Assembly: GCF_013122565.1 (NCBI RefSeq)
Contig: NZ_CP053258.1
Strand: one strand, 5' to 3'
Origin: Escherichia coli
GTDB lineage: Bacteria; Pseudomonadota; Gammaproteobacteria; Enterobacterales; Enterobacteriaceae
Length of the DNA: 64,000 bases
The notes under the pieces are model-generated. The model saw only the letters and a program-made list of their open reading frames with translations. It ran no database searches and was not told the DNA's origin. The position numbers and the translations under genes were made by a program. This document shows positions 3,457 through 64,000 of the stretch, piece after piece (position 1 is the first letter of the stretch; every line of letters starts with the position of its first letter).

Positions 3457-4019
3457 ATCGATTGCCCTTTGGCTTCATCCAGTTTGCCCTGCGCCAGGAG
3501 TAATAAGTCGCAAACTTCTCGCACTGCGCCACGACCGCCAGCAATGCGCGTCACGTAATCGGCGCGCGGGAGCAACAGTGGATGCGCATCGGCCACGGCG
3601 ACGCTTAAACCCACTTTTTCCATTACCGGCCAGTCGATGAGATCATCGCCGACATAAGCCACATTTTCCGGGGCAATCGCCAGTTTTTCCAGCAGATCGC
3701 TAAAAGCGATCAGTTTGTTTGACTGCCCCTGATACAAGTGAGTGATCCCCAATGTGGCACAACGATCTTCTACCAGTTTAGCCTTTCGCCCGGTAATGAT
3801 AGCGACTTCAATATCAGAGGTGAGCGCACAACGAATGCCATAACCGTCACGAACATTGAACGCTTTCAGCTCTTCGCCATTATTGCCCATATAAATCAGG
3901 CCATCTGACAGTACGCCATCGACATCGAGGATCAGCAGACGAATGTTCTCTGCTTTTGCTATAACGTCGGCGCTGACAGGGCCGTAACAGGTCGCAAGCG
4001 ACGCACCTGCTTTGCTCAT
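3453..4019 (-). CDS. kdsC: 3-deoxy-D-manno-octulosonate 8-phosphate phosphatase
   Basis: 188 aa HAD-family ORF (DVDGVL motif); overlaps lptC start by 4 nt. Confidence 0.95.
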   Translation of the reverse strand: MSKAGASLATCYGPVSADVIAKAENIRLLILDVDGVLSDGLIYMGNNGEELKAFNVRDGYGIRCALTSDIEVAIITGRKAKLVEDRCATLGITHLYQGQSNKLIAFSDLLEKLAIAPENVAYVGDDLIDWPVMEKVGLSVAVADAHPLLLPRADYVTRIAGGRGAVREVCDLLLLAQGKLDEAKGQSI

Positions 4020-4038
4020 TGTTTTTATCCTTGAATCT

Positions 4039-5025
4039 TTACACTACGCCTGCACGCAGTAAATCATGCATATGTAACACACCGAGTAAATGGTCGCCAT
4101 CGGCAACCATCACGGAGGTGATATGGCGGGACTGCATTAAGTTCAGTGCCTCAACGGCCAGAATGCCAGGGCGCACGCGTATTCCCCCCGGCGTCATCAC
4201 ATCGGCAATACTTAACTGACGAACATCCACGCCCATATCGAAGACACGGCGTAAATCACCGTCGGTAAAGATGCCTTCAATCATCATATTGTCATCGCAA
4301 ATGACAGTCATACCAAGATTTTTGCGGGTAACTTCCAGCAATGCGTCACGCAGACTGGCCGTTTTCTTAACATGCGGGATCTCATCGCCCGTATGCATAA
4401 TATCGTTTACGCGCAGCAGAAGTTTACGACCCAGTGCGCCGCCTGGGTGTGAGAGCGCAAAATCTTCAGCAGTAAAGCCGCGTGCTTTTAACAGCGCGAC
4501 AGCGAGGGCATCGCCCATAACCAGCGTGGCGGTGGTGCTGCTGGTCGGTGCCAGCCCTAACGGACAGGCTTCTTTCGCTACTTTAACACACAGATGCACA
4601 TCTGCGGCGCGCGCCATGCTGCTCTCCGGGCGACCGGTGATGCAGATTAACGGTACGTGAAGACGCTTAAGCACTGGAATTAAGGCCGTGATTTCGCTGG
4701 ATTCACCTGAGTTAGAGATAGCAATCACCACATCCTGTGGGGTGACCATGCCTAAATCACCATGCGCGGCTTCACCAGGATGGACGAAAAATGAAGGTGT
4801 ACCGGTGCTGGCAAACGTTGCCGCCATTTTGCGCCCAATATGCCCCGATTTCCCCATCCCCATGACGACAACTTTCCCTTTACACCAGAACATCTTTTCA
4901 CAGGCAAGCGTGAAATTCTGATTGATGTATTGATCAAGCTCCGCCAGGCATTCACGTTCAATCGCCAGGACTTCTTTACCTGCTTGCTGAAAGTCAAAAC
5001 CCGGTTGTAACTCTACGTGCGACAT
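4039..5025 (-). CDS. kdsD: D-arabinose 5-phosphate isomerase (SIS + tandem CBS domains)
   Basis: ORF 4039..5046 trimmed to Met of MSHVELQPGFDF; SIS motif GMGKSGHIGRK. Confidence 0.92.
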   Translation of the reverse strand: MSHVELQPGFDFQQAGKEVLAIERECLAELDQYINQNFTLACEKMFWCKGKVVVMGMGKSGHIGRKMAATFASTGTPSFFVHPGEAAHGDLGMVTPQDVVIAISNSGESSEITALIPVLKRLHVPLICITGRPESSMARAADVHLCVKVAKEACPLGLAPTSSTTATLVMGDALAVALLKARGFTAEDFALSHPGGALGRKLLLRVNDIMHTGDEIPHVKKTASLRDALLEVTRKNLGMTVICDDNMMIEGIFTDGDLRRVFDMGVDVRQLSIADVMTPGGIRVRPGILAVEALNLMQSRHITSVMVADGDHLLGVLHMHDLLRAGVV

Positions 5026-5038
5026 AATGCGTTTCCAG

Positions 5039-6016
5039 TTATTCAACGAGTATTGGCGATAACCAGTACAACATCGCCAGCCATACGATAAATCCGCCAG
5101 TTAATAATACCCCTACACCACGGCCCGGTTGCGGGGAGCGCCGCCAGCACAGCAACGCAAAAATAATGCTCACCAGCAACATCACGCTGTAGTCACGACT
5201 GTACGCCAGTGGATCAATCTCTCCTGGCGTTATCAGCGCGGGTAAACCCAACACGATGACAATATTAAAAATGTTTGCGCCAATGATATTTCCGACAGCA
5301 ATGTCGTTTTCACCTTTGCGAACCCCCGCTATTGCGGTTGCCAGTTCCGGCAGGCTGGTTCCGATAGCAATTGCCGTCAGACCCATCGTCAACTCGCTGA
5401 TGGCAAAGTAATTCGCCAGCACCGTGGCGTTATCAACTACCATCCGCGTGGCCACTGGCATGATGATAAGCGCAATGCCGAGCCATAAAAACGCGACGGG
5501 CAATCCGCCGTCACGCGGCAGCTCTGCAAGCTGCTCTCTGGTCAGGCTGTCAGTCCCCTGACGTTCAGCCTGACGTGCAATTTTAACAATGAACAGCAGC
5601 CATAGCACAGCCAGAAAGAGGAGAAAGATACCATCGCTGCGACTAAGTTGTCCGTCATAGAGTACGGAACCGGCCACCACGCTGACCAACAACATTAAGG
5701 GTAATTCACGGCGCAGAACATCGGAATGGACGGTAAAAGGACGAACCAGCGCAGCCAGACCGAGGATCAGCAATATATTGATAATGTTTGAGCCGAGGGC
5801 TGTACCAACGGCTAAATCACGTTGTTCGTGCAGTGATGCGGCAAGCGAGACGATGATTTCTGGTAACGATGTACCAATACTGACCACCGTCATGCCGATG
5901 ATCAGCGGCGGGATGCCAAAGGTTCGGCAAAGAATAGACGCGGCAAAAACCAGGCGGTCGGCACTGTAAACGACCAAAAGTAAACCAACAATTAACAGTG
6001 CCGTAGCTAAAAGCAT
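5039..6016 (-). CDS. yrbG: Putative Na+/Ca2+ exchanger family inner membrane protein
   Basis: 325 aa polytopic ORF with two GTSLPE alpha-repeat motifs. Confidence 0.93.
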   Translation of the reverse strand: MLLATALLIVGLLLVVYSADRLVFAASILCRTFGIPPLIIGMTVVSIGTSLPEIIVSLAASLHEQRDLAVGTALGSNIINILLILGLAALVRPFTVHSDVLRRELPLMLLVSVVAGSVLYDGQLSRSDGIFLLFLAVLWLLFIVKIARQAERQGTDSLTREQLAELPRDGGLPVAFLWLGIALIIMPVATRMVVDNATVLANYFAISELTMGLTAIAIGTSLPELATAIAGVRKGENDIAVGNIIGANIFNIVIVLGLPALITPGEIDPLAYSRDYSVMLLVSIIFALLCWRRSPQPGRGVGVLLTGGFIVWLAMLYWLSPILVE

Positions 6017-7829: not shown

Positions 7830-8381
7830 ATGCAAACGAAAAAAAATGAAATTTGGGTGGGTATCTTTTTATTAGCAGCACTGCTGGCGGCGCTGTTTGT
7901 TTGCCTGAAGGCGGCGAACGTGACGTCAATACGTACTGAACCGACCTACACGCTTTATGCGACGTTCGATAACATTGGCGGCCTGAAAGCGCGCTCTCCG
8001 GTCAGCATTGGTGGTGTTGTTGTGGGCCGGGTGGCGGATATTACGCTGGACCCGAAAACCTATCTGCCACGCGTAACACTGGAAATTGAACAACGTTATA
8101 ACCACATTCCTGATACCAGTTCGCTGAGCATTCGTACTTCTGGCCTGCTGGGGGAACAATATCTGGCATTAAACGTTGGTTTTGAAGACCCGGAACTGGG
8201 GACTGCTATCCTGAAGGATGGCGATACAATTCAGGACACCAAGTCTGCGATGGTGCTGGAAGATCTCATTGGTCAGTTCCTTTACGGTAGTAAAGGCGAT
8301 GACAATAAGAATAGTGGCGATGCGCCAGCTGCTGCGCCAGGTAATAATGAAACCACTGAACCTGTGGGTACAACGAAATAA
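7830..8381 (+). CDS. mlaD: MCE-domain phospholipid-binding protein MlaD
   Basis: ORF 7815..8381 trimmed to Met of MQTKKNEIWVGIFLL. Confidence 0.93.
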   Translation: MQTKKNEIWVGIFLLAALLAALFVCLKAANVTSIRTEPTYTLYATFDNIGGLKARSPVSIGGVVVGRVADITLDPKTYLPRVTLEIEQRYNHIPDTSSLSIRTSGLLGEQYLALNVGFEDPELGTAILKDGDTIQDTKSAMVLEDLIGQFLYGSKGDDNKNSGDAPAAAPGNNETTEPVGTTK

Positions 8382-9034
<653 letters not shown>

Positions 9035-9035
<1 letters not shown>

Positions 9036-9328
9036 TGAGCGAGTCACTGAGCTGGATGCAGACGGGTGACACGCTGGCGTTATCCGGAGAGCTGGATCAG
9101 GACGTTCTGCTACCGCTTTGGGAAATGCGTGAGGAAGCGGTGAAGGGGGTTACCTGCATCGATCTTAGCCGTGTGTCCCGCGTGGATACGGGGGGACTGG
9201 CACTGCTGCTCCATCTTATCGATCTGGCGAAAAAGCAGGGCAACAACGTGACGCTTCAGGGGGTAAACGACAAAGTGTATACCCTGGCGAAATTGTATAA
9301 TTTGCCTGCTGATGTTCTGCCTCGTTAA
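9035..9328 (+). CDS. mlaB: STAS-domain protein MlaB
   Basis: ORF 8939..9328 trimmed to ATG at 9035 (MSESLSWMQTGDTL); ATG overlaps mlaC stop in ATAATG. Confidence 0.9.
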
Positions 9329-9487
9329 ATTTTTTCAGGCCGGATATGGCGTTAACCGCCTGTCCGGCAAACCTGCCTGCAAGTCGAGCCTTGTCTGATT
9401 TATCAGCGAGGCTTTTTGCTTATTTATGCCAGCGCAACTTTGCTCTAAGATGTTTCGCTGGTTTATTAACTGATGATTGAAGAGCCC

Positions 9488-9742
9488 ATGGAAAATAATG
9501 AAATTCAGAGCGTGTTGATGAACGCTCTCTCCCTCCAGGAAGTCCACGTTTCCGGCGATGGCAGCCACTTTCAGGTTATTGCCGTGGGTGAGTTGTTTGA
9601 CGGCATGAGTCGGGTTAAAAAACAGCAGACGGTCTATGGTCCGCTGATGGAATATATTGCGGATAACCGCATTCATGCTGTGTCGATCAAAGCGTATACC
9701 CCTGCGGAGTGGGCGCGCGATCGCAAACTGAACGGCTTTTGA
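9488..9742 (+). CDS. ibaG: BolA-family acid-stress protein IbaG
   Basis: ORF 9473..9742 trimmed to [16 protein letters not shown]. Confidence 0.9.
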
Positions 9743-9796
9743 GCTATGGGCGATTCGCCGGTAGCGGATATGAATTGTTAACTGAGAACAAACTAA

Positions 9797-11056
<1,260 letters not shown>

Positions 11057-11103
11057 TCGTCTGAGAGCTGGCAGCCCCGTTCGCGGGGCTACCGCCAGAC
11101 CAC

Positions 11104-11382
11104 TCATTTTTTCGGTTTAGTGTAGCTACGCATCAACTGCGTTCTGTCGATAAACTCATGGGTCTGCGGATCATGGTAGCGTGATGGCCAGATAACCCAG
11201 GGGTCAGTTCCCAGGGCTTTCGCAATAATCATCTCTCCTTTCGGCCATGGGCGCGATAATGCATTCGCCAGCGTTGAGGAACTCAAACCATTTCTGCGAG
11301 ACTCCGCCGCCATTGACGTTCCCTTCTTGCGCAAACCCGCAATGATGTCAGCGGGATGCCAGTCAATGAAATTACTTTCCAT
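11104..11382 (-). CDS. sfsB: Ner-like DNA-binding regulator
   Basis: 92 aa ORF MESNFIDWHPADIIAGLRKKGTSMAAESRRNGLSSSTLANAL. Confidence 0.93.
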   Translation of the reverse strand: MESNFIDWHPADIIAGLRKKGTSMAAESRRNGLSSSTLANALSRPWPKGEMIIAKALGTDPWVIWPSRYHDPQTHEFIDRTQLMRSYTKPKK

Positions 11383-48153: not shown

Positions 48154-49194
48154 ATGACTGGTCAGTCTTCATCTCAGGCGGCAACGCCCATTCAGTGGTG
48201 GAAACCCGCGCTTTTCTTTCTCGTTGTCATTGCCGGTCTCTGGTATGTGAAATGGCAACCTTACTACGGCAAAGCGTTTACTGCTGCCGAAACCCACAGT
48301 ATCGGTAAATCTATCCTTGCGCAGGCGGATGCTAATCCATGGCAGGCGGCGTTGGATTACGCGATGATCTATTTCCTCGCGGTATGGAAAGCGGCGGTGC
48401 TGGGGGTGATCCTCGGTTCGTTGATTCAGGTGCTGATCCCGCGTGACTGGTTGTTGCGTACGCTTGGGCAATCGCGCTTTCGCGGCACGCTGCTGGGAAC
48501 GCTGTTTTCGCTGCCGGGCATGATGTGTACCTGCTGTGCGGCTCCGGTTGCGGCGGGAATGCGTCGCCAACAGGTGTCGATGGGCGGTGCGCTGGCATTC
48601 TGGATGGGCAATCCGTTGTTAAACCCGGCAACGCTGGTATTTATGGGCTTTGTCCTCGGCTGGGGTTTTGCCGCAATTCGTCTGGTGGCGGGGCTGGTGA
48701 TGGTGTTGCTGATTGCGACCCTGGTGCAAAAATGGGTGCGTGAAACAGCGCAAACGCAGGCACCGGTCGAAATTGACATACCGGAAGCACAGGGCGGGTT
48801 TTTTAGCCGCTGGGGCAGGGCGTTATGGACGCTTTTCTGGAGTACGATCCCGGTTTACATCCTTGCAGTACTGGTGTTGGGTGCCGCTCGCGTCTGGTTA
48901 TTCCCCCATGCCGATGGTGCTGTCGATAACAGCCTGATGTGGGTGGTGGCGATGGCGGTGGCAGGATGCTTGTTTGTCATTCCCACGGCAGCAGAAATTC
49001 CGATTGTACAAACGATGATGCTGGCAGGTATGGGAACTGCTCCGGCGCTGGCATTGTTGATGACGCTCCCGGCGGTGAGTTTGCCGTCACTGATTATGCT
49101 GCGCAAAGCGTTCCCGGCGAAAGCCTTATGGCTGACGGGGGCGATGGTGGCAGTGTCTGGTGTGATTGTCGGCGGGCTGGCGCTGTTGGCCTAA
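48154..49194 (+). CDS. yraQ: Inner membrane permease
   Basis: 346 aa polytopic ORF. Confidence 0.92.
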   Translation: MTGQSSSQAATPIQWWKPALFFLVVIAGLWYVKWQPYYGKAFTAAETHSIGKSILAQADANPWQAALDYAMIYFLAVWKAAVLGVILGSLIQVLIPRDWLLRTLGQSRFRGTLLGTLFSLPGMMCTCCAAPVAAGMRRQQVSMGGALAFWMGNPLLNPATLVFMGFVLGWGFAAIRLVAGLVMVLLIATLVQKWVRETAQTQAPVEIDIPEAQGGFFSRWGRALWTLFWSTIPVYILAVLVLGAARVWLFPHADGAVDNSLMWVVAMAVAGCLFVIPTAAEIPIVQTMMLAGMGTAPALALLMTLPAVSLPSLIMLRKAFPAKALWLTGAMVAVSGVIVGGLALLA

Positions 49195-49228
49195 CATGTT
49201 GGATGCTCTTGAATACAGCACTGGACGG

Positions 49229-49260
49229 TCCCCTCTCCCCTTTGGGGAGAGGGTGAGGGG
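49229..49260. terminator. Strong palindromic hairpin between convergent yraQ and dolP
   Basis: TCCCCTCTCCCCTTTGGGGAGAGGGTGAGGGG. Confidence 0.45.
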
Positions 49261-49309
49261 AACAGGTCGGCTAAGATGTGAATATTTACTTCAACGACCG
49301 ATCAATGGC

Positions 49310-49885
49310 TTATTTAATAAACGTAAACGCCGTAGTTACCCGCTTCACGCCGCTCACCCGGCTGGCAATATCTGCCGCCGCTTTCGCTTCACGTTCAGTC
49401 ACCAGCCCCATCAGGAACACTTCACCGTTTTCGGTGGTCACTTTCACGTTGGACGATTTCACCAGGTCGCTGGTTAAGAGCTGCGAACGCACTTTGGTGG
49501 TGATCCACGTATCGTTAGACGCTTCGCCCAGACCAATCGGCTGGCCCTGACGAATCTCGTTATACACTTCGTTGGCACCGTCTACGCCCATAGCAATCTG
49601 TTTGGCGCGAGCCGAAAGTTCAGCGTTTGGTGACTGCCCAACCAGCAGCACTTTGCCCTGATAGGCTGTTACATTAATGCGCGCTTCTTTCTTAATTTGT
49701 TCGTCTTTCGACAATGCGCTGTTCACGCGCACTTCCAGGGTACCATCGTCCACCTGGGTGCCGACACTGCGTGGGTCAGTTGCGGCTTTGGTACCCACAG
49801 CAGCGGTACCCACTACGGCAGCGGCAACACAACCTTGCAACAGCAGCGCGGAAATAAGGACTGCGATTGGCGATAATGCCTTCAT
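49310..49885 (-). CDS. dolP: Dual-BON-domain outer membrane lipoprotein DolP
   Basis: 191 aa ORF MKALSPIAVLISALLLQGC (lipobox). Confidence 0.95.
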   Translation of the reverse strand: MKALSPIAVLISALLLQGCVAAAVVGTAAVGTKAATDPRSVGTQVDDGTLEVRVNSALSKDEQIKKEARINVTAYQGKVLLVGQSPNAELSARAKQIAMGVDGANEVYNEIRQGQPIGLGEASNDTWITTKVRSQLLTSDLVKSSNVKVTTENGEVFLMGLVTEREAKAAADIASRVSGVKRVTTAFTFIK

Positions 49886-50504: not shown

Positions 50505-50900
50505 TTATGAGTGGTCATTAAAGGCATCCTTAATCCACTCAACCTCATTCCCGGTGAAGGCTACCACATCGAACCGGCAATCCACAGTATCAAAACTCCC
50601 ATTATGACGCGCGAGCCACAAGCGGGCAGTCTGTAATAATTTGTGTTGTTTGCTGCGGGTCACACTGGCTGCCGCGCCGCCATAAAGCGCAGAGCGGCGA
50701 TAACGTACCTCGACAAAAACGGTGATCCGGCCTTCACGCATTATCAGATCGATCTCACCGCCACGCTCATTCACGTTAGCGGCGATAAACCGCAGTCCTT
50801 TGCCTTCCAGCCAGCGACGCGCTTGTACTTCCCACGCATCGCCGGTCTGTTTGGTGGTTAACTGGCGGGGACTACCTGACCTTGTTGGTACTGTAGCCAT
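50505..50900 (-). CDS. yraN: UPF0102 (YraN-family) protein
   Basis: 131 aa ORF; overlaps lpoA 3' end. Confidence 0.9.
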
Positions 50901-52885
50901 GATAACTTCCTGTTAATCACGCAATCCGGGTTAGCCGTCAGGCTTCCGGTATTGCCGTTGATTTCAAAACCCTGAACCTGGCGCATTTGTGAGAAATGAT
51001 TTGCCAGCGACCAGGCATCGACGCCCATCGCATACATGCGAGCCAGTGAATAATCGTTATTCACCGCGCTGAGTGCCTGCTGCATTAACGGTAGATTACC
51101 GCCTGCCAGCATCGGGATTTCGCTGTACTGCAAGCCTTCCATCTCCAGACGGAAATCCGGGCCAGCGGTCCCTTGCGCACTGCGGGAGCTGGCGTACAGC
51201 GTTGCACCGCTCTGGCTACCGTTACGCATGGCGATCATCGGTTTGATAAAAGCGATTTCACCCGGCGTTGCCACAATGTACACCGCATCGACACGACCGC
51301 CATTATTGGTGAACTGGTCATCGGTTGGCGTGGTTTGCAGCGTTGGATTGTTGGTCGTCATGCCGGAGTCGGTTGTCGCTCTGGGAGTAATCGGGCTACC
51401 CGTTAAAGCGATACCAGAACCGCCGTTAACACCCGCGCGTAATTCGCTGGTGGAACCAAATTTTTGTTGCAGAACGGTGCCGCCGCCCAGTTTCTGCCAC
51501 TCTTGCGCAAACGCATTGGCTACGCGATCGCCCAATGAACTGCGTGGGATCAGCACCAGCGGCGCTTGTTTACCCTGGTCACGAATATGACGCGCTGCAT
51601 CGCGCGCTTCGTCTTCCGGCGAAAGCGCGAAGTAACAAATATTGACGCGGTTTTCGATATTCTCCGGCTGGTTCAGTGCCAGCACGTTCAGCGGGGTGTT
51701 GCTCTTAAGCAACTCTTCAACGTTATTTTTCAGCAACGGACCGACCATAATACTTGCACCATCCTGCTGAACCTGGCTTAAGATCTGGCTAAGTGGTTGT
51801 GATGAGGTATCGTAGATTTTTAGCTCTGCGGATGGATTTGCGGGTGCGCTTACCGCTGCGGTGCTTGTCGCCGGGGCGCTTACAGGCACCGGCTGGGCCG
51901 CAGGCTGTTCACCGGTCAGATCGCTAACCGAGGCTTGTGCCGGGCTGGCAACGCCATCCACGGTTTGCGGTTGAGGTTGTTCTGCTACGTCTGCGGCAGC
52001 TACCTGAGCCGCCACTGGCTGAGTGCCGATATTTTTCGCCGCTTCAAAGCCTTGCTGAATAGTGCGACCAAATACCGCTGCCTGGCCATTCAGTGGCAAC
52101 AGCAGGGCGATTTTGTTGGTTGATGCTGGTTTAAACGCTTTTACGTTAACCAACTGCGTGGGCAGCATTTTCGCGCCCGGGTTGTTCGGATAACGTTTCT
52201 GCCAGTCGGCGATCCCGGCTTTCATCATGTCGGGATCGTTACGGTTATCAAACCAGACGCGCTGCAGATCCAGCCAGCCTTGCAGAATATTTTCGTCGGC
52301 GTTGATCACCAGCGTATTCGCCTGTTCCTGAGTCATGGAGGAGAGCGCCTGCCAGGTGGCGTCAATATTCTGCTGCTTTTCTTTCGCGCCGAGCAGCGGT
52401 TCCTGAGCAATTAACGCACGCAGTAAATCAATGGAAGGACGCCCCTGGCTGGCATCGATTTTTGCCTGCCAGTAACGCGCTTGCTGGTTTTGTTCTAAAT
52501 CGGCAGGTGTGATTTTCGCCAGCAAGTTTTGCGCGCCAGCAAAATCTTTCTGTACCAGTTTAATCTCTACCGCCAGCAGTGTTTTCTCGCGGCGCTGAGC
52601 ATCGTTCAGTTCTTGCGGTAGTTGGTTAAACAACTCCACCGCCTGCCCGGTTTTACCTTCTTTCACCAGTGCACGAATGGCGAGTAATTGCCAGTTGATC
52701 CTGGTATCATCAGAGCTTTGCTGCATCTGCTGAAGATAAAAGGCAGAATCAGCCTGCGCCGTGCCCTGCATATAAGCAGTGGACTGATCGGGAGTATGGG
52801 TGCCACAACCGGCGAAAATCAGGGCTGCCAGAACAACAGGCAGACAACGCGCGGCTTTCAAACGAGAAAATGTTGAGGGTACCAT
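50858..52885 (-). CDS. lpoA: Outer membrane lipoprotein activator of PBP1A
   Basis: 675 aa ORF with lipobox (LIFAGC), N-terminal TPR-like and C-terminal periplasmic-binding-like domain. Confidence 0.95.
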
Positions 52886-52948: not shown

Positions 52949-53812
52949 ATGAAACAACACCAATCGGCGGATAATTCTCAGGGCCAGCTTTACATCGTAC
53001 CAACACCAATCGGCAATCTGGCGGATATCACCCAGCGTGCGTTAGAGGTATTACAGGCCGTTGATCTGATTGCCGCCGAGGATACTCGTCACACCGGTTT
53101 ATTGCTGCAACATTTTGGGATTAATGCCCGGTTGTTTGCACTGCACGACCATAACGAACAACAAAAAGCCGAAACGCTGCTGGCGAAGCTGCAAGAGGGG
53201 CAAAACATTGCGCTGGTTTCCGATGCCGGAACGCCGCTAATTAACGATCCTGGCTACCATCTGGTGCGTACCTGCCGTGAAGCGGGGATTCGCGTGGTGC
53301 CGCTACCCGGGCCGTGTGCTGCTATCACTGCGTTAAGCGCCGCAGGTTTACCCTCTGACCGTTTCTGTTACGAAGGCTTTTTACCTGCCAAATCAAAAGG
53401 CCGCCGTGATGCGCTAAAAGCCATTGAAGCGGAGCCGCGCACGCTGATTTTTTATGAATCTACCCACCGTCTGTTAGATAGCCTGGAAGATATCGTTGCG
53501 GTATTAGGCGAATCCCGCTACGTAGTTCTGGCGCGTGAGCTCACCAAAACCTGGGAAACCATTCACGGCGCGCCTGTTGGCGAGCTGCTGGCGTGGGTCA
53601 AAGAAGATGAAAACCGTCGCAAAGGCGAAATGGTGCTGATTGTCGAAGGCCATAAAGCGCAGGAAGATGACCTGCCTGCTGATGCCCTGCGCACGCTGGC
53701 GCTGCTACAGGCAGAACTGCCGCTGAAAAAAGCGGCGGCGCTAGCCGCAGAAATTCACGGCGTGAAGAAAAATGCGCTGTATAAGTATGCGTTGGAGCTG
53801 CAGGGAGAGTGA
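52949..53812 (+). CDS. rsmI: 16S rRNA C1402 2'-O-methyltransferase
   Basis: 287 aa [38 protein letters not shown]. Confidence 0.96.
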
Positions 53813-53923
53813 TATCTCTCCGTGGCCCCGTTTGAAGAACCCAGGGGCCGCCTGCTAAACAATTAGTCTTTTTAGTGCATACCGCGCCGTAAATCCTCGC
53901 TCCGTGCGGACTGACCTCTTAAA

Positions 53924-54880
53924 TCAGGGGGCTAGTTGCGTGGTATAGTTGGCAGCGACCCAACGATAACCCTTGCTGTCGCTTTTAACATGCCCCAGGC
54001 CTGGGAATGAGATATGGGCTGCTGCCACCCAGTAACCACCCTGAGCCGCATGTTTTAATACTCGCTCACGGGTTTTTACCGCTTGCTGTTGATCCACATC
54101 GAAATGTATCGCCACGTGAGGATCCGGCATCTGCACTGCTTTGGCATGAATAATATCGCCCCACAACACTAGCGTCTGGCCTTCACTCTCCACTGTGTAC
54201 ATCACGCTACCAGGAGTATGGCCGGCCGTTGAGGTGGCTGCAATGCCTGCAATTACCGTTGCCGGTGCGATAAAGGTCTTCAGCTGACCTGCGTTGATCA
54301 CTGGGCGGATGGTCTGCTCCGATTCGACAAAGGTGTGCTTCTGACTATCTTCTACTTGCGAGGCATTCGCCGGATTAAGCCAGAAATCCGCATCTTTCTG
54401 CTCAACGAATACCTGGGCGTTAGGGAAAGCTGGTTTGCCCTGACGGGAGATGCCACCAGAGTGGTCGGCATGAATATGCGTCAGCAGCACGGCATCAATG
54501 GTTTCAGCCGGATAGCCAGCAGCTGCCAGGTTTTCAAGCAATTGGCCTCCATTGTTGCCAAACAGATCGCCCGCACCGGCATCAACCAACACGCGCTGCT
54601 GGCCATTATCAATAACAAATGCATTGATTGAAGTCTCCGTATGGGGTGTCAGTGAATCCTTTGCCAGTTGTTGGCGCAGTTTATCGGCAGGAATGTGGGT
54701 GAGTAATTTATCTAGCGGAATTGTCACCGTGCCGTCGGAGACAGCGGTAATACGTAGTTTGCCCAATATCATGCGGTAATAGCCCGGTGCTTGTGTATCA
54801 GGAGGGGGCACAGGTATAGGCGTTGCTAACGCATTTACGGAGAGTACCAGTGAGGTTACCAGAGTCAGCAAAAGTTTCAT
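53924..54880 (-). CDS. Secreted metallo-beta-lactamase-fold hydrolase, MPH-like (putative lactonase / phosphotriesterase-type enzyme)
   Basis: 318 aa ORF; N-terminal signal peptide MKLLLTLVTSLVLSVNALA; MBL motif THIHADHSGG (HxHxDH) plus downstream His/Asp ligand motifs AGHTPGS, WGDIIH, AAHISFPG; N-terminal APGYYRM...ITAVSDGTV region recalled as characteristic of methyl parathion hydrolase family; not present at this locus in K-12. Confidence 0.75.
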   Translation of the reverse strand: MKLLLTLVTSLVLSVNALATPIPVPPPDTQAPGYYRMILGKLRITAVSDGTVTIPLDKLLTHIPADKLRQQLAKDSLTPHTETSINAFVIDNGQQRVLVDAGAGDLFGNNGGQLLENLAAAGYPAETIDAVLLTHIHADHSGGISRQGKPAFPNAQVFVEQKDADFWLNPANASQVEDSQKHTFVESEQTIRPVINAGQLKTFIAPATVIAGIAATSTAGHTPGSVMYTVESEGQTLVLWGDIIHAKAVQMPDPHVAIHFDVDQQQAVKTRERVLKHAAQGGYWVAAAHISFPGLGHVKSDSKGYRWVAANYTTQLAP

Positions 54881-54890
54881 TCTATCCTCG

Positions 54891-54904
54891 ATAAGTTCTG
54901 TTAT
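54891..54904. promoter_or_regulatory. Candidate LysR-type regulator binding dyad in divergent promoter region
   Basis: ATAAGTTCTGTTAT (ATAA-N6-TTAT inverted repeat, T-N11-A-like) midway between the two divergent start codons. Confidence 0.3.
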
Positions 54905-54961
54905 TACAGTACGGGCACCAGTATCCTTTTGCGAATAACATCATTCAAATTGATTAATATA

Positions 54962-55906
54962 ATGAACTCTATCAGAGAAAATGATTTAAACCGGGTCGAC
55001 CTCAACCTGCTAATCGTGCTCCTGGTGCTACATCGAGAGGGGAGCGTTTCACGTGCAGCCAGCAAGTTACACTTGGGGCAGCCAGCAGTTAGTGGCGCGC
55101 TGGCACGGCTGAGAGAAATGTTTAACGACCCGTTATTTGTGCGCACGGCAAAGGGGATGGCACCGACACCACGTGCACAAGCTCTGGTTACGGCACTACT
55201 GCCGGTGATGGATCAAATGCAGCAGGTGATTTTTCAAAGGCCGGTTTTTACCCCAGAACAGGATCAGCATACGTTTCGCCTGGGGATGAGTGACTGGGTC
55301 GAACGCTGGCTGATGCCTGGAATGATGGCAGATATAGCCCAAATGGCACCCGGGATTCGCTTACAAGTCACGGCATCCGATCCTTTCCAGGATGGCGAAA
55401 AAGTGCAACAGGATAAGGTGGACGTAGCAATCTCCGTCGTGGAGCAGGTGCCCACCGGAGTGGAACGAGAAGTGATCACTCAAATGGGGTTTTGCACGAT
55501 GTGGCATCCGCTCCAGTTATCCCTCACTTCACCGTTAAGCCTTGATGTATATACTGAAACCGATCATCTTTTGGTCTCTTATCGCGGTGCCAGCAGTAGC
55601 TCTATCGATCTGATTTTGGCTGACTGCGGGCGTAAAAGGGAAGTGCGTTACGTCACGCCAAATTTCTCATCGTTACCGTTGATGTTGAGACAGATACCGG
55701 CTTTAGCGACCGTACCGCAGGGGCTGGCAGTAGGCTGGGTAGCCGATTATGGGTTGCAATTTGCCGATGTCCCACTCGAGGTTCCTGCTTTTACGCTCTC
55801 TCTACTCTGGAATAAGCGGCGTAATAATGATGAGGCGCTGCGCTGGTTACTGGAGAAATTACGCACACGAATGCAGGGCTGGGAGATGTTTTCAGAATGC
55901 GTTTGA
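54962..55906 (+). CDS. LysR-family transcriptional regulator
   Basis: ORF 54929..55906 (TTG) trimmed to ATG 54962; N-terminal HTH (VDLNLLIVLLVLHREGSVSRAASKLHLGQPAVSGALARLRE) and LysR substrate-binding domain; divergent from the MBL-fold gene. Confidence 0.8.
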   Translation: MNSIRENDLNRVDLNLLIVLLVLHREGSVSRAASKLHLGQPAVSGALARLREMFNDPLFVRTAKGMAPTPRAQALVTALLPVMDQMQQVIFQRPVFTPEQDQHTFRLGMSDWVERWLMPGMMADIAQMAPGIRLQVTASDPFQDGEKVQQDKVDVAISVVEQVPTGVEREVITQMGFCTMWHPLQLSLTSPLSLDVYTETDHLLVSYRGASSSSIDLILADCGRKREVRYVTPNFSSLPLMLRQIPALATVPQGLAVGWVADYGLQFADVPLEVPAFTLSLLWNKRRNNDEALRWLLEKLRTRMQGWEMFSECV

Positions 55907-56183
55907 AAACGTAAAAATGTGAACAGGAAATAAGGGCTTGCTAAATTAAATAACTCCTGTCAGATAATTTAGCGTATAGGTGCAATCGTGCCCTAATGGC
56001 CGTTAAACATGTCTTGCAGCTAATTGGGTTAATAAGTATTTGAATCGCTTTTCAGGATTAGTGAGTCGTATGAGGGAGCTGTGCTCTGTCACCATGTACC
56101 TGATATTATGTATTTTTTGTCAACCTTTAGGTTTACATTGTGATGGAATAATAGCGGGGGACGATCAAACTGAACCGTAATGA

Positions 56184-56218
56184 AGTGCTCAAAAGACATG
56201 AGCACTTTTCTTATTTTT
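56184..56218 (+). terminator. Orphan plus-strand intrinsic terminator in LysR-agaI spacer
   Basis: AGTGCTCAAAAGACATGAGCACT followed by TTTCTTATTTTT. Confidence 0.6.
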
Positions 56219-56235
56219 CCGGGCTAAGAGGGATG

Positions 56236-57003
56236 TTAATGACGACAAATCTCATCAATCATGCATGTGAAATGGTTATGCAGCCATAAAAATGAAGCCG
56301 GGATAGCGGTAGAGACTTTAGCCGTGAGAAAACGTTCTGTCGCATCCTGCTTTCCTTCGCCAGTCACCAGTAACAAAACTTCGCGGGCATTGAGAATATC
56401 TTTCAGGCCTAAGGTGATCCCACGTGTCACGGGGCGACCCGCGGTTTTTAACATCTCATGTTGCTGTGTTCTGGCATCAAGATGACTGATATGGCAGGCC
56501 GGTTGCAGGCTTTCTCCCGGTTCGTTCAGCCCAAGGTGACCGTTTTTCCCCAATCCGAGAACGCATAAATCCAGACCGCCTTTGCGCGCAATCAGGTTCG
56601 TTACCCGTTCGCACTCTGTCTCATTTATCTCTTCGGAGCGAAAGCTGATGAGCTGGTCTTCACGTAGCCCCAGCGGCTGCACGATATGCTGTTGCAGGAA
56701 AGTTTCGCAGGTGCCAGGCATCGTTAATGGCAGATCCACCCATTCGTCGAGCTTCACGAAGGTGAGCTGGCTGACATCAACCTGCTGCTGGTGGATTTTT
56801 TCTACCAGATAATGATACGTCAGTAATGGCGTCGCTCCGGTCGCCAGGCAAATCACGGCATCCGATTTACTACGGATCACGGCCAATAAATATTCGCTGG
56901 CACGTTCACTTAACGCCGTATAGTTTTCAACTTGCTGAAGGGTTTGCACAGGATGAAATTCCTTAAGTAAAGAGGCACCGCCAGAAGCAGTGCCTCGTTC
57001 CAT
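56236..57003 (-). CDS. agaI: Galactosamine-6-phosphate deaminase/isomerase (NagB-like)
   Basis: 255 aa ORF; NagB-family; last gene of aga operon, stop adjacent to agaD. Confidence 0.9.
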   Translation of the reverse strand: MERGTASGGASLLKEFHPVQTLQQVENYTALSERASEYLLAVIRSKSDAVICLATGATPLLTYHYLVEKIHQQQVDVSQLTFVKLDEWVDLPLTMPGTCETFLQQHIVQPLGLREDQLISFRSEEINETECERVTNLIARKGGLDLCVLGLGKNGHLGLNEPGESLQPACHISHLDARTQQHEMLKTAGRPVTRGITLGLKDILNAREVLLLVTGEGKQDATERFLTAKVSTAIPASFLWLHNHFTCMIDEICRH

Positions 57004-61647: not shown

Positions 61648-62781
61648 TCAAAACGAAGCTAATTGACCCTGAATCCAGATTTGTTGCACATGCAGCCCGC
61701 TATCCAGCGCAACGACGCTGGCGCGTTTGCCCGGTTTAAGCGATCCCAGAACACCATCAACACCCAGCATTCGCGCCGGATGCAGCGATGCCATATGAAT
61801 GGCTTCCGCAGGCGTTACGCCCGTCAACTCGACCATATTGCGCACTGCCGCATCAACAGACAGCGTACTGCCCGCCAGCCCACCGGACGCGGTACGGACA
61901 ACGCCACCGTGCATCTGCACTTCTTCGCCACATAACGTATAGCGACCATCCGGCATCCCGGCTGCCTGCATCGCGTCGGTGATCAGCACGATTCTCTCTT
62001 TCGCACAGCAACAACACAGCGACATCGCCGCCGGATGCACATGATGACCATCGGCTATCAGTTCCAGCCAGGCGCGCTTGTCCGTTAATCCCGCGCCAAC
62101 CATTCCCGGTTCGCGGTGATGTAAACCTGTCATCCCGTTATAGCAATGCACCAGGCCGTCGGCACCAGCATCAAACGCGGCGCGGGTTTGTTGCCAGGTC
62201 GCCGCGCTATGCCCCAGCATCACTCGTACATTTTGCTGTTTAAGATGGCGGATGGCCTGCAATGCCCCTTCTTTTTCCGGTGCCAGCGCTACCACGCGTA
62301 AGGTGTGCTGAGAAACGGCAATCAACTGATCCAGCTCGGCAATTTCAAGCTCGCGAAACAGCTCCGGCGGATGCGCGCCTTTATTCTGCGGCGTGAAGTA
62401 CGGTCCTTCGAGATAACTCCCCAGCACTTGCGCACCAGGCCCGCCGCGTTGGCAACGTTGAGCAATACGTTTCAGCACCGCATGAATGGTACTAAGCGGC
62501 GCGGTTACGGTGGTCGGTAACCAACTGCCGACACCTTCGCGTGCCTTGTGCATTGCCAGCTTGTCGAGTACATCCGGCGCGTCATCCATTACATCAACGC
62601 CCGCACCACCGTGTACATGGGTGTCGATGTAAGCGGGGCAGAGCAGTTCCGCATCGCGTTCAGTCACGCCCACTGGAATCGGTTCGATTGCTGCGATGAC
62701 ACCGTCAGCAATACGCAACTGATGGTCATCGAGCCATCCCTCTTCAGTCAGCAGCCTTCTGGCGCGCAGAACGTGTGTCAT
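61648..62781 (-). CDS. agaA: N-acetylgalactosamine-6-phosphate deacetylase, full length
   Basis: 377 aa ORF; amidohydrolase metal ligands (HVHGG region); full-length unlike the truncated K-12 allele. Confidence 0.9.
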   Translation of the reverse strand: MTHVLRARRLLTEEGWLDDHQLRIADGVIAAIEPIPVGVTERDAELLCPAYIDTHVHGGAGVDVMDDAPDVLDKLAMHKAREGVGSWLPTTVTAPLSTIHAVLKRIAQRCQRGGPGAQVLGSYLEGPYFTPQNKGAHPPELFRELEIAELDQLIAVSQHTLRVVALAPEKEGALQAIRHLKQQNVRVMLGHSAATWQQTRAAFDAGADGLVHCYNGMTGLHHREPGMVGAGLTDKRAWLELIADGHHVHPAAMSLCCCCAKERIVLITDAMQAAGMPDGRYTLCGEEVQMHGGVVRTASGGLAGSTLSVDAAVRNMVELTGVTPAEAIHMASLHPARMLGVDGVLGSLKPGKRASVVALDSGLHVQQIWIQGQLASF

Positions 62782-63212
62782 ATTCCTTCCTCAACCGGAC
62801 ATTCCTCATGGCAGCGGCCTAACTCGTCCACCAGACTGGTCAGCCCTCGGTGTCCACACTCCAGCGCCTGCACTCGGAACTCTTCACCGCTTAACCCTTC
62901 GCGCTCCAGCACCATCTCCAGTAGCAGTTGTAAATTGGTTCCGGTAATCACTTCACAGCCCGGTTTTTGCATCGCCAGCGTTGACGCTACGCGAAACGGC
63001 GTGCCGCCCAGCAAATCCGTCAGAAAAACAATGCCGTCTTCACAATCCAGTTGGGCGATGGCCTCTTCAAGCTGCGATGTAAGTAGCGCGGTGCTTGAGG
63101 TTTCGGGAAAATCGATGGCGATAAACTGCGATTGCTCACCGAGAATTTGCTTCATTGCTTTTTCCATGCCGCTGGCAAACCCGCCGTGCCCTGTCAAAAT
63201 AATACTTAACAT
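62778..63212 (-). CDS. agaF: PTS mannose-family IIA component
   Basis: 144 aa ORF MLSIILTGHGGFASGMEKAMKQILGE; overlaps agaA start. Confidence 0.9.
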   Translation of the reverse strand: MLSIILTGHGGFASGMEKAMKQILGEQSQFIAIDFPETSSTALLTSQLEEAIAQLDCEDGIVFLTDLLGGTPFRVASTLAMQKPGCEVITGTNLQLLLEMVLEREGLSGEEFRVQALECGHRGLTSLVDELGRCHEECPVEEGI

Positions 63213-63229
63213 CTAATACCTCATTGTAT

Positions 63230-64000
63230 TTAAAGGAAATGGCAGAATTTACCGACGATGCCGAGAACCACGGTAACTGCAATCAGGCGCAGCGGACTCC
63301 AGCCGCGGCGTACCAGCCAGAACATGGTCAGGGTGTAGACCAGCGGTAAGAAGGCAGGCATCAGTTTGTCGATAACATCAGCCTGTAACTTAACCACTGC
63401 GTCGCCCGCTGTGATTTCCAGCGTGGTGCTTAAACGTACATAGGTTGCCACCAGCGCGCCGATTACCGTCATCCCAACGATAGACGCAGCATGACCGACT
63501 TTTTTGGTATTCGCTTTAATGAGTGGAATCGCCGCCACGCCCATGCGGTAAGCATAATGCGCCAGACCAAAACGCAGCCCCAGGTGTACCACGTTGAACA
63601 GCACAATAAAGACGACTGCGCCAAGAATAGAGCCTTGCAATGCCAGACTGGCTCCAATCCCGCCACAAATCGGCAGTAGCGTTAGCCAGAACATTGCATC
63701 GCCAATCCCGCCAAGTGGCGCACCGACGGCAATTTTGGTGCTCTGAATACTGTTAACGTCCTGCTTAGAACGCTCCATCGCGAGGATAATGCCGATAACA
63801 AACGTCACCAGAAACGGATGGGTATTGAAGAAACCCATATGCCCCTTCATGGCGCGCGCCAGGTCGCGTTTATTAGTGTGGATCTTTTTCAGAGCAGGCA
63901 GCAGACCGTACAACCAGCCGGAAGCCTGCATACGTTCGTAGTTAAAAGACGCTTGTAACAGCATGGAACGCCAGGCGACGCGGTTGATATCTTTTTTCGT
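63230..64000 (-). CDS. agaE: PTS mannose-family IID component, partial (start beyond window end)
   Basis: Reading frame continues to window edge (…TKKDINRVAWRSMLLQASFNYERMQASGW), paralogous to agaD. Confidence 0.85.
   Translation of the reverse strand, partial: TKKDINRVAWRSMLLQASFNYERMQASGWLYGLLPALKKIHTNKRDLARAMKGHMGFFNTHPFLVTFVIGIILAMERSKQDVNSIQSTKIAVGAPLGGIGDAMFWLTLLPICGGIGASLALQGSILGAVVFIVLFNVVHLGLRFGLAHYAYRMGVAAIPLIKANTKKVGHAASIVGMTVIGALVATYVRLSTTLEITAGDAVVKLQADVIDKLMPAFLPLVYTLTMFWLVRRGWSPLRLIAVTVVLGIVGKFCHFL

Follow-up and report, generated by a model that had tools for sequence, protein, structure and literature searches.

Here, we describe a short variable segment of the Escherichia coli chromosome that lies between the convergent genes rsmI and agaI in a window of 64,000 nucleotides (the whole stretch of DNA analysed, from contig NZ_CP053258.1 of assembly GCF_013122565.1) and which encodes a LysR-type regulator and, divergently from it, a hydrolase of the metallo-β-lactamase (MBL) fold. 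The segment, which spans positions 53813-56235, is probably an alternative allele of the rsmI-agaI junction, its cargo being an old mobile sense-and-hydrolyse unit composed of the LysR protein and a periplasmic lactonase or esterase. An initial annotation of this DNA had listed the divergent gene pair, an AT-rich spacer and a length of 2.4 kb, all of which are confirmed, with their coordinates, by the open reading frames (ORFs), and had named the yraHIJK fimbrial operon as the occupant of the same place in K-12; MG1655 does indeed have the gene order agaI-yraH-yraI-yraJ-yraK-rsmI there.

In the mechanism that we propose, the LysR protein would bind an ATC-N9-GAT dyad beside its own start codon and repress its own expression. 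Once it has bound a small ligand, which may be either the substrate or the product of the enzyme, it would activate the divergent hydrolase promoter. The hydrolase would be exported by the Sec pathway, take up two metal ions in the periplasm and open a lactone or aryl-ester bond there, the likeliest substrates being aromatic lactones of plant or microbial origin, of the dihydrocoumarin type; organophosphates and β-lactams are less likely. An Erwiniaceae-like donor would have passed the pair to E. coli, whose lineages would later have exchanged it via homologous recombination in the flanking core genes.

The hydrolase and its family

The hydrolase gene (53924-54880, minus strand) encodes a protein of 318 amino acids that is, judged by its sequence, a member of the family of methyl-parathion hydrolase (MPH) and the dihydrocoumarin hydrolases (DHCHs), and is in this respect less mysterious than the initial annotation implied. 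It matches entries of the Protein Data Bank over its full mature length, namely the reconstructed AncDHCH1 (5hif/6c2c; E = 1e-89), MPH (1p9e; 6e-80) and OPHC2/PoOPH (2e-72), with residues 23-313 aligning to residues 8-297 of the 299-residue AncDHCH1 chain, and it matches the Pfam family Lactamase_B at 9e-18. The MBL fold is fixed by this sequence identity to solved structures, which for the characterized enzymes is 44-49% (48.6% to AncDHCH1 and 43.5% to MPH). When the numbering of MPH is mapped onto the protein via the printed alignment, all seven metal ligands are found to be present, as H135, H137, D139, H140, H221, D242 and H289, which correspond to H147, H149, D151, H152, H234, D255 and H302 of MPH (HxHxDH + H + D + H) and are invariant in 15 orthologues.

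The substrate class is suggested by a small number of further positions. Five changes are reported to be both necessary and sufficient for turning the ancestral lactonase into MPH, namely l72R, an insertion at 193, h258L, i271T and f273L (PMC8222346; 10.1101/504811), and at all five of these sites the hydrolase retains the ancestral state, with L59 for MPH position 72, no insertion at 193, and H245, I258 and F260 for positions 258, 271 and 273. The loop at 193 is one residue shorter than that of MPH, and its alignment to AncDHCH1 needs no gap; L59, H245, I258 and F260 are invariant among the 15 orthologues, which are 65-89% identical. Extant DHCHs in the ancestral state have a kcat/KM of at least 1e6 on dihydrocoumarin and of less than 1e2 on organophosphates (10.1101/504811), and OPHC2 hydrolyses dihydrocoumarin, its best tested substrate, and does not hydrolyse N-acyl-homoserine lactones (AHLs) (PMC3817169). 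As the five MPH changes are absent, we expect lactonase or esterase activity, with phosphotriesterase activity in traces at most, and the chemistry of the enzyme is probably the hydrolysis of aromatic lactones or aryl esters.

The closest likeness is thus to the DHCHs (AncDHCH1 and the extant JsDHCH, BbDHCH and SmDHCH), with which the hydrolase shares full-length homology, all seven ligands, the residues found at positions 72, 258, 271 and 273, and the length of the 193 loop. The crystallized constructs are trimmed at the place of its putative N-terminal export signal. It differs from them at about half of its residues and in its regulator, since we found no LysR partner described for the characterized DHCHs. 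MPH (Pseudomonas sp. WBC-3, 1p9e) and OPHC2/PoOPH (4le6, 4o98) have the same fold and two-metal site, MPH being set apart by the five organophosphate-hydrolase changes.

The export signal is a putative Sec-type signal peptide, MKLLLTLVTSLVLSVNALA|TP, encoded by codons 1-19 (54824-54880), in which n-, h- and c-regions and an AxA cleavage site can be recognized, with neither the Cys of a lipobox nor a twin-Arg motif. The N-termini of the orthologues are variable yet hydrophobic, and native MPH is periplasmic (PMC8222346). The initial annotation had called the hydrolase secreted; a putative Sec-type signal with no lipobox is better read as directing the protein to the periplasm, and a periplasmic rather than secreted enzyme is most likely.

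The LysR regulator, its partner and their shared promoter

The regulator gene (54962-55906, plus strand) is divergent from the hydrolase gene and encodes 314 amino acids. Its ORF begins at a TTG at 54929 in the mechanical ORF list; we place the start at the ATG at 54962, which is conserved among the orthologues, because all of them start there and because RefSeq annotates 314 amino acids in carrier genomes. The protein has the two domains of an ordinary LysR-type transcriptional regulator (LTTR), HTH_1 (PF00126; residues 14-73, 3.5e-17) and LysR_substrate (PF03466; residues 99-304, 1e-20), and falls short of the NCBIfam cut-offs for the named LTTRs, including BsrA (197.6 bits against 480), LeuO (112.4 against 262), YidZ and others. 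It resembles NodD, with its ATC-N9-GAT nod box, and LTTRs such as LeuO and BsrA in its domains, its divergent arrangement and the dyad beside the regulator start, while being the equivalog of no named member.

The association of the two genes extends well beyond E. coli. We scanned one genome per species and took the best 80 loci for the hydrolase (lowest listed identity ~43%). Wherever both genes occur together in other species, at 45 loci, they are divergent neighbours, and at every locus among the best 80 where the hydrolase is at least ~55% identical an orthologous LysR gene (43-87% identical) lies divergently upstream. The regulator co-diverges with the hydrolase across the loci that bear the pair, which is kept in about 40 species of Enterobacterales, often plant-associated ones, and in a few Betaproteobacteria. 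The surroundings differ between genera, the pair being found in unrelated contexts across the Enterobacterales, and clustering of all ORFs from 40 loci produced no third conserved neighbour, the next 'families' being antisense ORFs inside the two genes themselves. The description of the pair as a self-contained unit, which had been offered from the single sequence, is thereby upheld.

Between the two genes lies a divergent promoter region of 81 bp (54881-54961), a spacing of 81-82 bp that also occurs in the closest relatives. It contains a candidate regulator site, the LysR-type box ATCATTCAAATTGAT (54940-54954), which is an ATC-N9-GAT dyad of the T-N11-A type. It lies upstream of both start codons, by 8 nt for the LysR ATG and by 60-74 nt for that of the hydrolase. 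The box is present at the same offset in every one of the 45 loci, exactly in 37 and with one mismatch in eight, and its columns are 100% conserved where neighbouring columns reach 35-60%. A second, weaker element, GGATACTG (read in the hydrolase direction; 54919-54926), shows column conservation of 60-91% and may be an activation site or the -35 region of the hydrolase promoter.

Alternative alleles at the rsmI-agaI junction

The initial annotation had proposed that the pair is an alternative cargo at a replacement hotspot, and searches of 5,426 complete E. coli genomes agree, with at least four states of the junction. The yraHIJK operon is found in 3,264 genomes at 80% coverage or more (3,523 with any match). 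In a further 1,808, for example strain 536, the junction is empty, the stop codons of rsmI and agaI lying 49 bp apart. The LysR and MBL pair is present in 63 genomes (1.2%), and the fourth state, a helix-turn-helix (HTH) protein with a RelE/ParE-type toxin as a toxin-antitoxin pair, in 13. Different and mutually exclusive cargos thus occur at one junction within the species, with the sharp stop-codon borders of other E. coli core-gene replacement hotspots, and the site is an ordinary core-gene-flanked hotspot of this kind; the LysR and hydrolase pair, being present in 63 of the 5,426 genomes, is not a core locus of E. coli. We found neither its allele nor the toxin-antitoxin allele described in the papers that were searched, and an exact 43-mer of the segment's left end, used to search for further types of cargo, had no match in the JGI metagenomes.

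All 63 matches to the pair are chromosomal and single-copy, with both genes annotated under the match. The five carrier contexts inspected are all the rsmI-agaI junction, and four of the five have both ORFs intact; LysR is frameshifted in 2012C-4221 (locus 3642-4577), and, as a separate instance of decay, agaI has an internal stop in 32F4 (locus 4815-5582). Carriers include about 30 genomes of O145:H28/NM Shiga toxin-producing E. coli (STEC) and strains of O169:H41, with others from pig, pigeon, poultry, cattle, baboon, bear, fish and vegetables.

The borders of the segment are precise. The left is formed by rsmI (52949-53812, plus strand; identified from the ORF list and its annotation in carrier genomes), a core gene matched in 5,424 of the 5,426 genomes, and the right by the core-like agaI (56236-57003, minus strand), 2,423 bp away. 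Compared with the empty haplotype, homology stops exactly at both flanking stop codons (56235/56236 on the agaI side). The yra haplotype, in contrast, replaces the final codons of both flanking genes (53806-53812 and 56236-56278 of the window against K-12), so that RsmI has 286 amino acids in K-12 and 287 in the window, and AgaI 251 and 255, with unrelated C-terminal ends; K-12 DNA accordingly matches the flanks only up to 53805 and from 56279, the non-colinear part being 53806-56278.

Within these borders, the pair is enclosed by two short frames that it has in common with the toxin-antitoxin haplotype. The left frame (65 bp, 53813-53877), which is ~97-100% identical between the two and absent from the empty and yra haplotypes, contains a GC-rich inverted repeat, GGCCCC...GGGGCC, at 53824-53849. 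The right frame (122 bp, 56114-56235), 91-95% identical, includes a terminator-like hairpin (56182-56208) followed by a T-run on the plus strand. As the frames are the same and what lies between them is different, the history of the junction points to nested replacement, in at least two events. Two further stretches are particular to the pair haplotype, namely 46 bp 3' of the hydrolase stop codon (53878-53923), with no counterpart in other junction haplotypes or related species, and an AT-rich spacer (55907-56113) that occurs in carriers of the pair only and has no ORF, RNA family or homologue in relatives. From 55907 to 56235 the GC content is 38.9%, compared with 51.8% for the whole window. 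Neither the 46 bp nor the ~200 bp of spacer has a counterpart in anything searched.

Both of the rarer haplotypes show features of their own. For the toxin-antitoxin haplotype, exemplified by E. coli JX21CE8 (5001-5851 of the extracted locus, equivalent to 53813-56235 of the window), the toxin coding sequence is annotated at 148 amino acids, which is long for the family, and reaches into the shared right frame, so that the annotated start may be too far upstream. O145-type carriers of the pair share the spacer only up to the equivalent of 55960, after which O145:H28 RM12581 (extracted locus 8093-11131) has a phosphotransferase system (PTS) IIB fragment, a MalY/PatB-like gene and a malX-like PTS gene; in these carriers the malX/malY-like genes replace agaB-agaC-agaD-agaI, a second replacement event that abuts the pair.

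Movement of the alleles through the population is likely to have involved the flanking genes. Between junction haplotypes, dS in rsmI is 0.09-0.15, compared with 0-0.08 for diaA and lpoA, and this high diversity fits repeated recombination through the flanks and suggests that breakpoints cluster in rsmI. Between two carriers, that of the window and an O145 strain, dS is 0.154 in rsmI and only 0.053 in the pair. That yra is present in some lineages and absent from others was known before, and in a published reconstruction the E/B1/A lineage gained the operon against a background otherwise lacking it (PMC6896753), in agreement with a 49-bp state that predates yra.

An insertion sequence (IS), transposon or integrative island was considered as the vehicle and rejected, as neither transposase, integrase, terminal repeats, target-site duplication nor RNA family was found. 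Thus the ORF scan of the segment revealed no transposase- or integrase-type ORF, the search for direct or inverted repeats flanking it gave only short chance matches, Rfam gave no family match in it even at E <= 1, and the K-12 Yra proteins matched the segment and the whole window at chance level only, with no fimbrial remnant. These searches support the earlier statement that the segment lacks such traces and is not a recent IS insertion. A 23-nt inverted match (83%) relates the HTH-coding part of LysR (55108-55130) to the spacer (55998-56020), whose copy reads LQDMFNG on the minus strand for LREMFND in LysR. The match could stem from a degraded second LysR gene in the spacer or be a coincidence; a translated search for such a gene gave nothing significant, and the idea was dropped.

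Elsewhere, the window had been described as colinear with K-12, which holds at 98-99% identity except at 49189-49310 and 62207-64000. The first of these (122 bp, between yraQ and dolP) is a repeat, GGTCCCCTCTCCCCTTTGGGGAGAGGGTGAGGGGAAC, which we take to resemble the boxC repeat, where K-12, 536, LHM10-1 and O145 have palindromes of the repetitive extragenic palindromic (REP) type. The second has no counterpart in K-12, which has only the pseudogenes agaW and agaA, and belongs to a region with a full-length nagA/agaA-like ORF (61648-62781), an agaF-like ORF (62778-63212) and an agaE-like ORF (63230-63964). LpoA (lpoA, 50858-52885) has 675 amino acids in the window and 678 in LHM10-1, O145, 536 and JX21CE8, a difference of three codons.

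Origin and likely function of the pair

A protein search returned 1,965 homologues of the hydrolase, of which the closest from outside E. coli (87-89% identity) come from metagenome assemblies. The nearest of all, at 89% in a Logan assembly (locus 702-1583), has a second LysR-family gene tail-to-tail with the LysR gene of the pair and a glyoxalase-family gene downstream of the hydrolase. Among the best 80 species-representative loci, Erwinia aphidicola ranks first of the named relatives (87% amino-acid identity), followed by Winslowiella, Yersinia rohdei, other Erwinia, Pantoea, Kosakonia and Phytobacter; Citrobacter freundii, Serratia, Cedecea, Trabulsiella, Xenorhabdus and Pectobacterium are also represented, with Betaproteobacteria below ~55%. 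No Escherichia representative is among these 80, where any at ~43% identity or above would appear. DNA homology to the relatives covers 53922-55909 only, that is, both genes and the promoter that they share. Orthologues of 76-82% identity lie on plasmids of 100-590 kb from plant hosts, in Erwinia rhapontici, E. persicina and Pantoea agglomerans, and such Erwinia/Pantoea plasmids are plausible vehicles of transfer.

Several points weigh against an imported lactone-sensing and lactone-hydrolysing unit. The hydrolase is assigned to no NCBIfam equivalog, its best model, AidB, being matched below the cut-off, and identities of 44-49% make the inference of a substrate from five sites a weak one; for the Enterobacterales clade, activity, localization and regulation are predictions. 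Dihydrocoumarin undergoes spontaneous hydrolysis in water (PMC13200227), an argument for regarding it as a proxy and not as the physiological substrate, and the native substrate of OPHC2 is unknown according to its authors (PMC3817169). The centre of the box is only ~67 nt from the hydrolase ATG, so that the proposed promoter geometry is tentative, and one carrier has a frameshifted LysR gene. As to origin, a comparison with the flanks, which the initial annotation had suggested, finds the GC and GC3 of both pair genes indistinguishable from theirs, and a compositional signature of foreign DNA was rejected on these grounds. Alleles of the pair in E. coli differ by up to ~3% of their DNA, the dS of 0.053 between the window and O145 being core-like, and together with the flank-like composition this divergence excludes a recent import.

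The same two observations favour the best of the alternatives, namely that there was no import and that Escherichia had the pair at this junction from the outset, most lineages having since lost it by deletion to 49 bp or had it overwritten by yraHIJK or the toxin-antitoxin genes. The core-like divergence means that the pair has either been long in the species or is ancestral and mostly lost, and an ancestral state would also accommodate the single site of all inspected carriers and the absence of mobility genes. It is countered by the restriction of the pair to 1.2% of genomes, by closest relatives that belong to the Erwiniaceae and have the pair in unrelated contexts, including plasmids, by the gain of yra on a yra-less background (PMC6896753), which fits an older 49-bp state, and by the lack of any Escherichia representative among the best 80 loci. 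Because the pair is absent from other Escherichia representatives, we rate import as more likely and an ancestral origin as doubtful.

With respect to function, the nearest competitor is signal degradation, in which the hydrolase would degrade the AHLs of neighbouring cells in the periplasm and the LysR protein would sense AHLs or their ring-opened products. The best NCBIfam model for the hydrolase is the AHL lactonase AidB (NF047979; 202.3 bits, E = 9e-60), aligned nearly end to end, and AidC (4zo2; 1e-32) is likewise homologous; both resemble it over the whole domain, the same lactone-opening two-metal chemistry being predicted here, and many of the host genera are found on plants in the company of bacteria that produce AHLs. 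The AidB score is, however, far below the equivalog cut-off of 360, and the DHCHs, MPH and OPHC2 are much closer relatives, OPHC2 being inactive on AHLs (PMC3817169). His245, as in the DHCHs, stands three residues after the bridging Asp, where motif spacing would place the Tyr of AiiA-type lactonases. An Erwinia lactonase (PMC8537011) was set aside, as its membership in the family of this hydrolase is not shown. We regard a dedicated AHL lactonase as unlikely, and prefer an aromatic lactone or aryl ester as the substrate of the hydrolase.

It is less probable still that E. coli carries the pair as silent and decaying baggage that currently serves no function. Its rarity, the frameshift in 2012C-4221 and a dN/dS of 0.6-0.7 for LysR within E. 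coli could be read in this way, the last coming from only 3-10 differences. Against relatives, however, dN/dS is 0.08-0.12 for LysR and 0.07-0.10 for the hydrolase, which within E. coli has a value of 0.16, and purifying selection acts on both genes. Both ORFs are intact in four of the five inspected carriers and annotated in all 63, and neither the catalytic residues nor the regulatory box is disrupted.

There is little to recommend a true organophosphate hydrolase that would degrade pesticides such as methyl parathion: it is suggested by the homology to MPH and OPHC2 and by one E. coli record named 'methyl parathion hydrolase', and opposed by the 43.5% identity to MPH and by the low organophosphate activity of enzymes with the ancestral states (10.1101/504811). 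A subclass B3 metallo-β-lactamase conferring antibiotic resistance, to which the MBL fold, the predicted export and weak matches to B3 models and structures might point, can be dismissed, since the B3 model NF033105 is matched at 44.1 bits against a cut-off of 240 and L1/AIM-1 at 1e-5 to 1e-6, compared with 1e-89 for the DHCH.

What the preferred reading, an old mobile unit of a LysR regulator and a periplasmic lactonase or esterase, would mean for the cell can be said only tentatively. It is conceivable, if doubtful, that the pair is a dedicated sensor and effector for a lactone made by plants or microbes, for example a phytoalexin of the coumarin type or a signal resembling AHLs, that it came from plant-associated Erwiniaceae, and that in E. 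coli, notably in O145:H28 STEC, it serves adaptation to a plant or environmental niche as an allelic alternative to Yra fimbriae. No functional characterization of the pair was found in the literature or in databases, where the hydrolase is called 'MBL fold metallo-hydrolase' or, in one GenBank record from E. coli and by homology, 'methyl parathion hydrolase', in keeping with the earlier remark that the pair has no assigned function in this species.

Nothing established is overturned by these findings: the enzyme family, the type of regulator, here an ordinary LTTR with a NodD-like box, and the phenomenon of hotspots are well known, and the exact proteins are already in databases. What they add is a precise, testable annotation for a gene pair that databases label only generically, the hydrolase being, from its sequence, a new clade of the DHCH/MPH family with a predicted function, and the documentation of rsmI-agaI as a replacement hotspot with four states, beside the known yra polymorphism. 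About 1% of E. coli carry the pair, among them the pathogen lineages O145:H28 and O169:H41, of which O145:H28 STEC are food-borne and associated with produce. Its conserved pairing with a regulator, in about 40 species of Enterobacterales, offers a handle on the native substrate of the DHCH/MPH family, for which the promoter may serve as a biosensor of the inducer.

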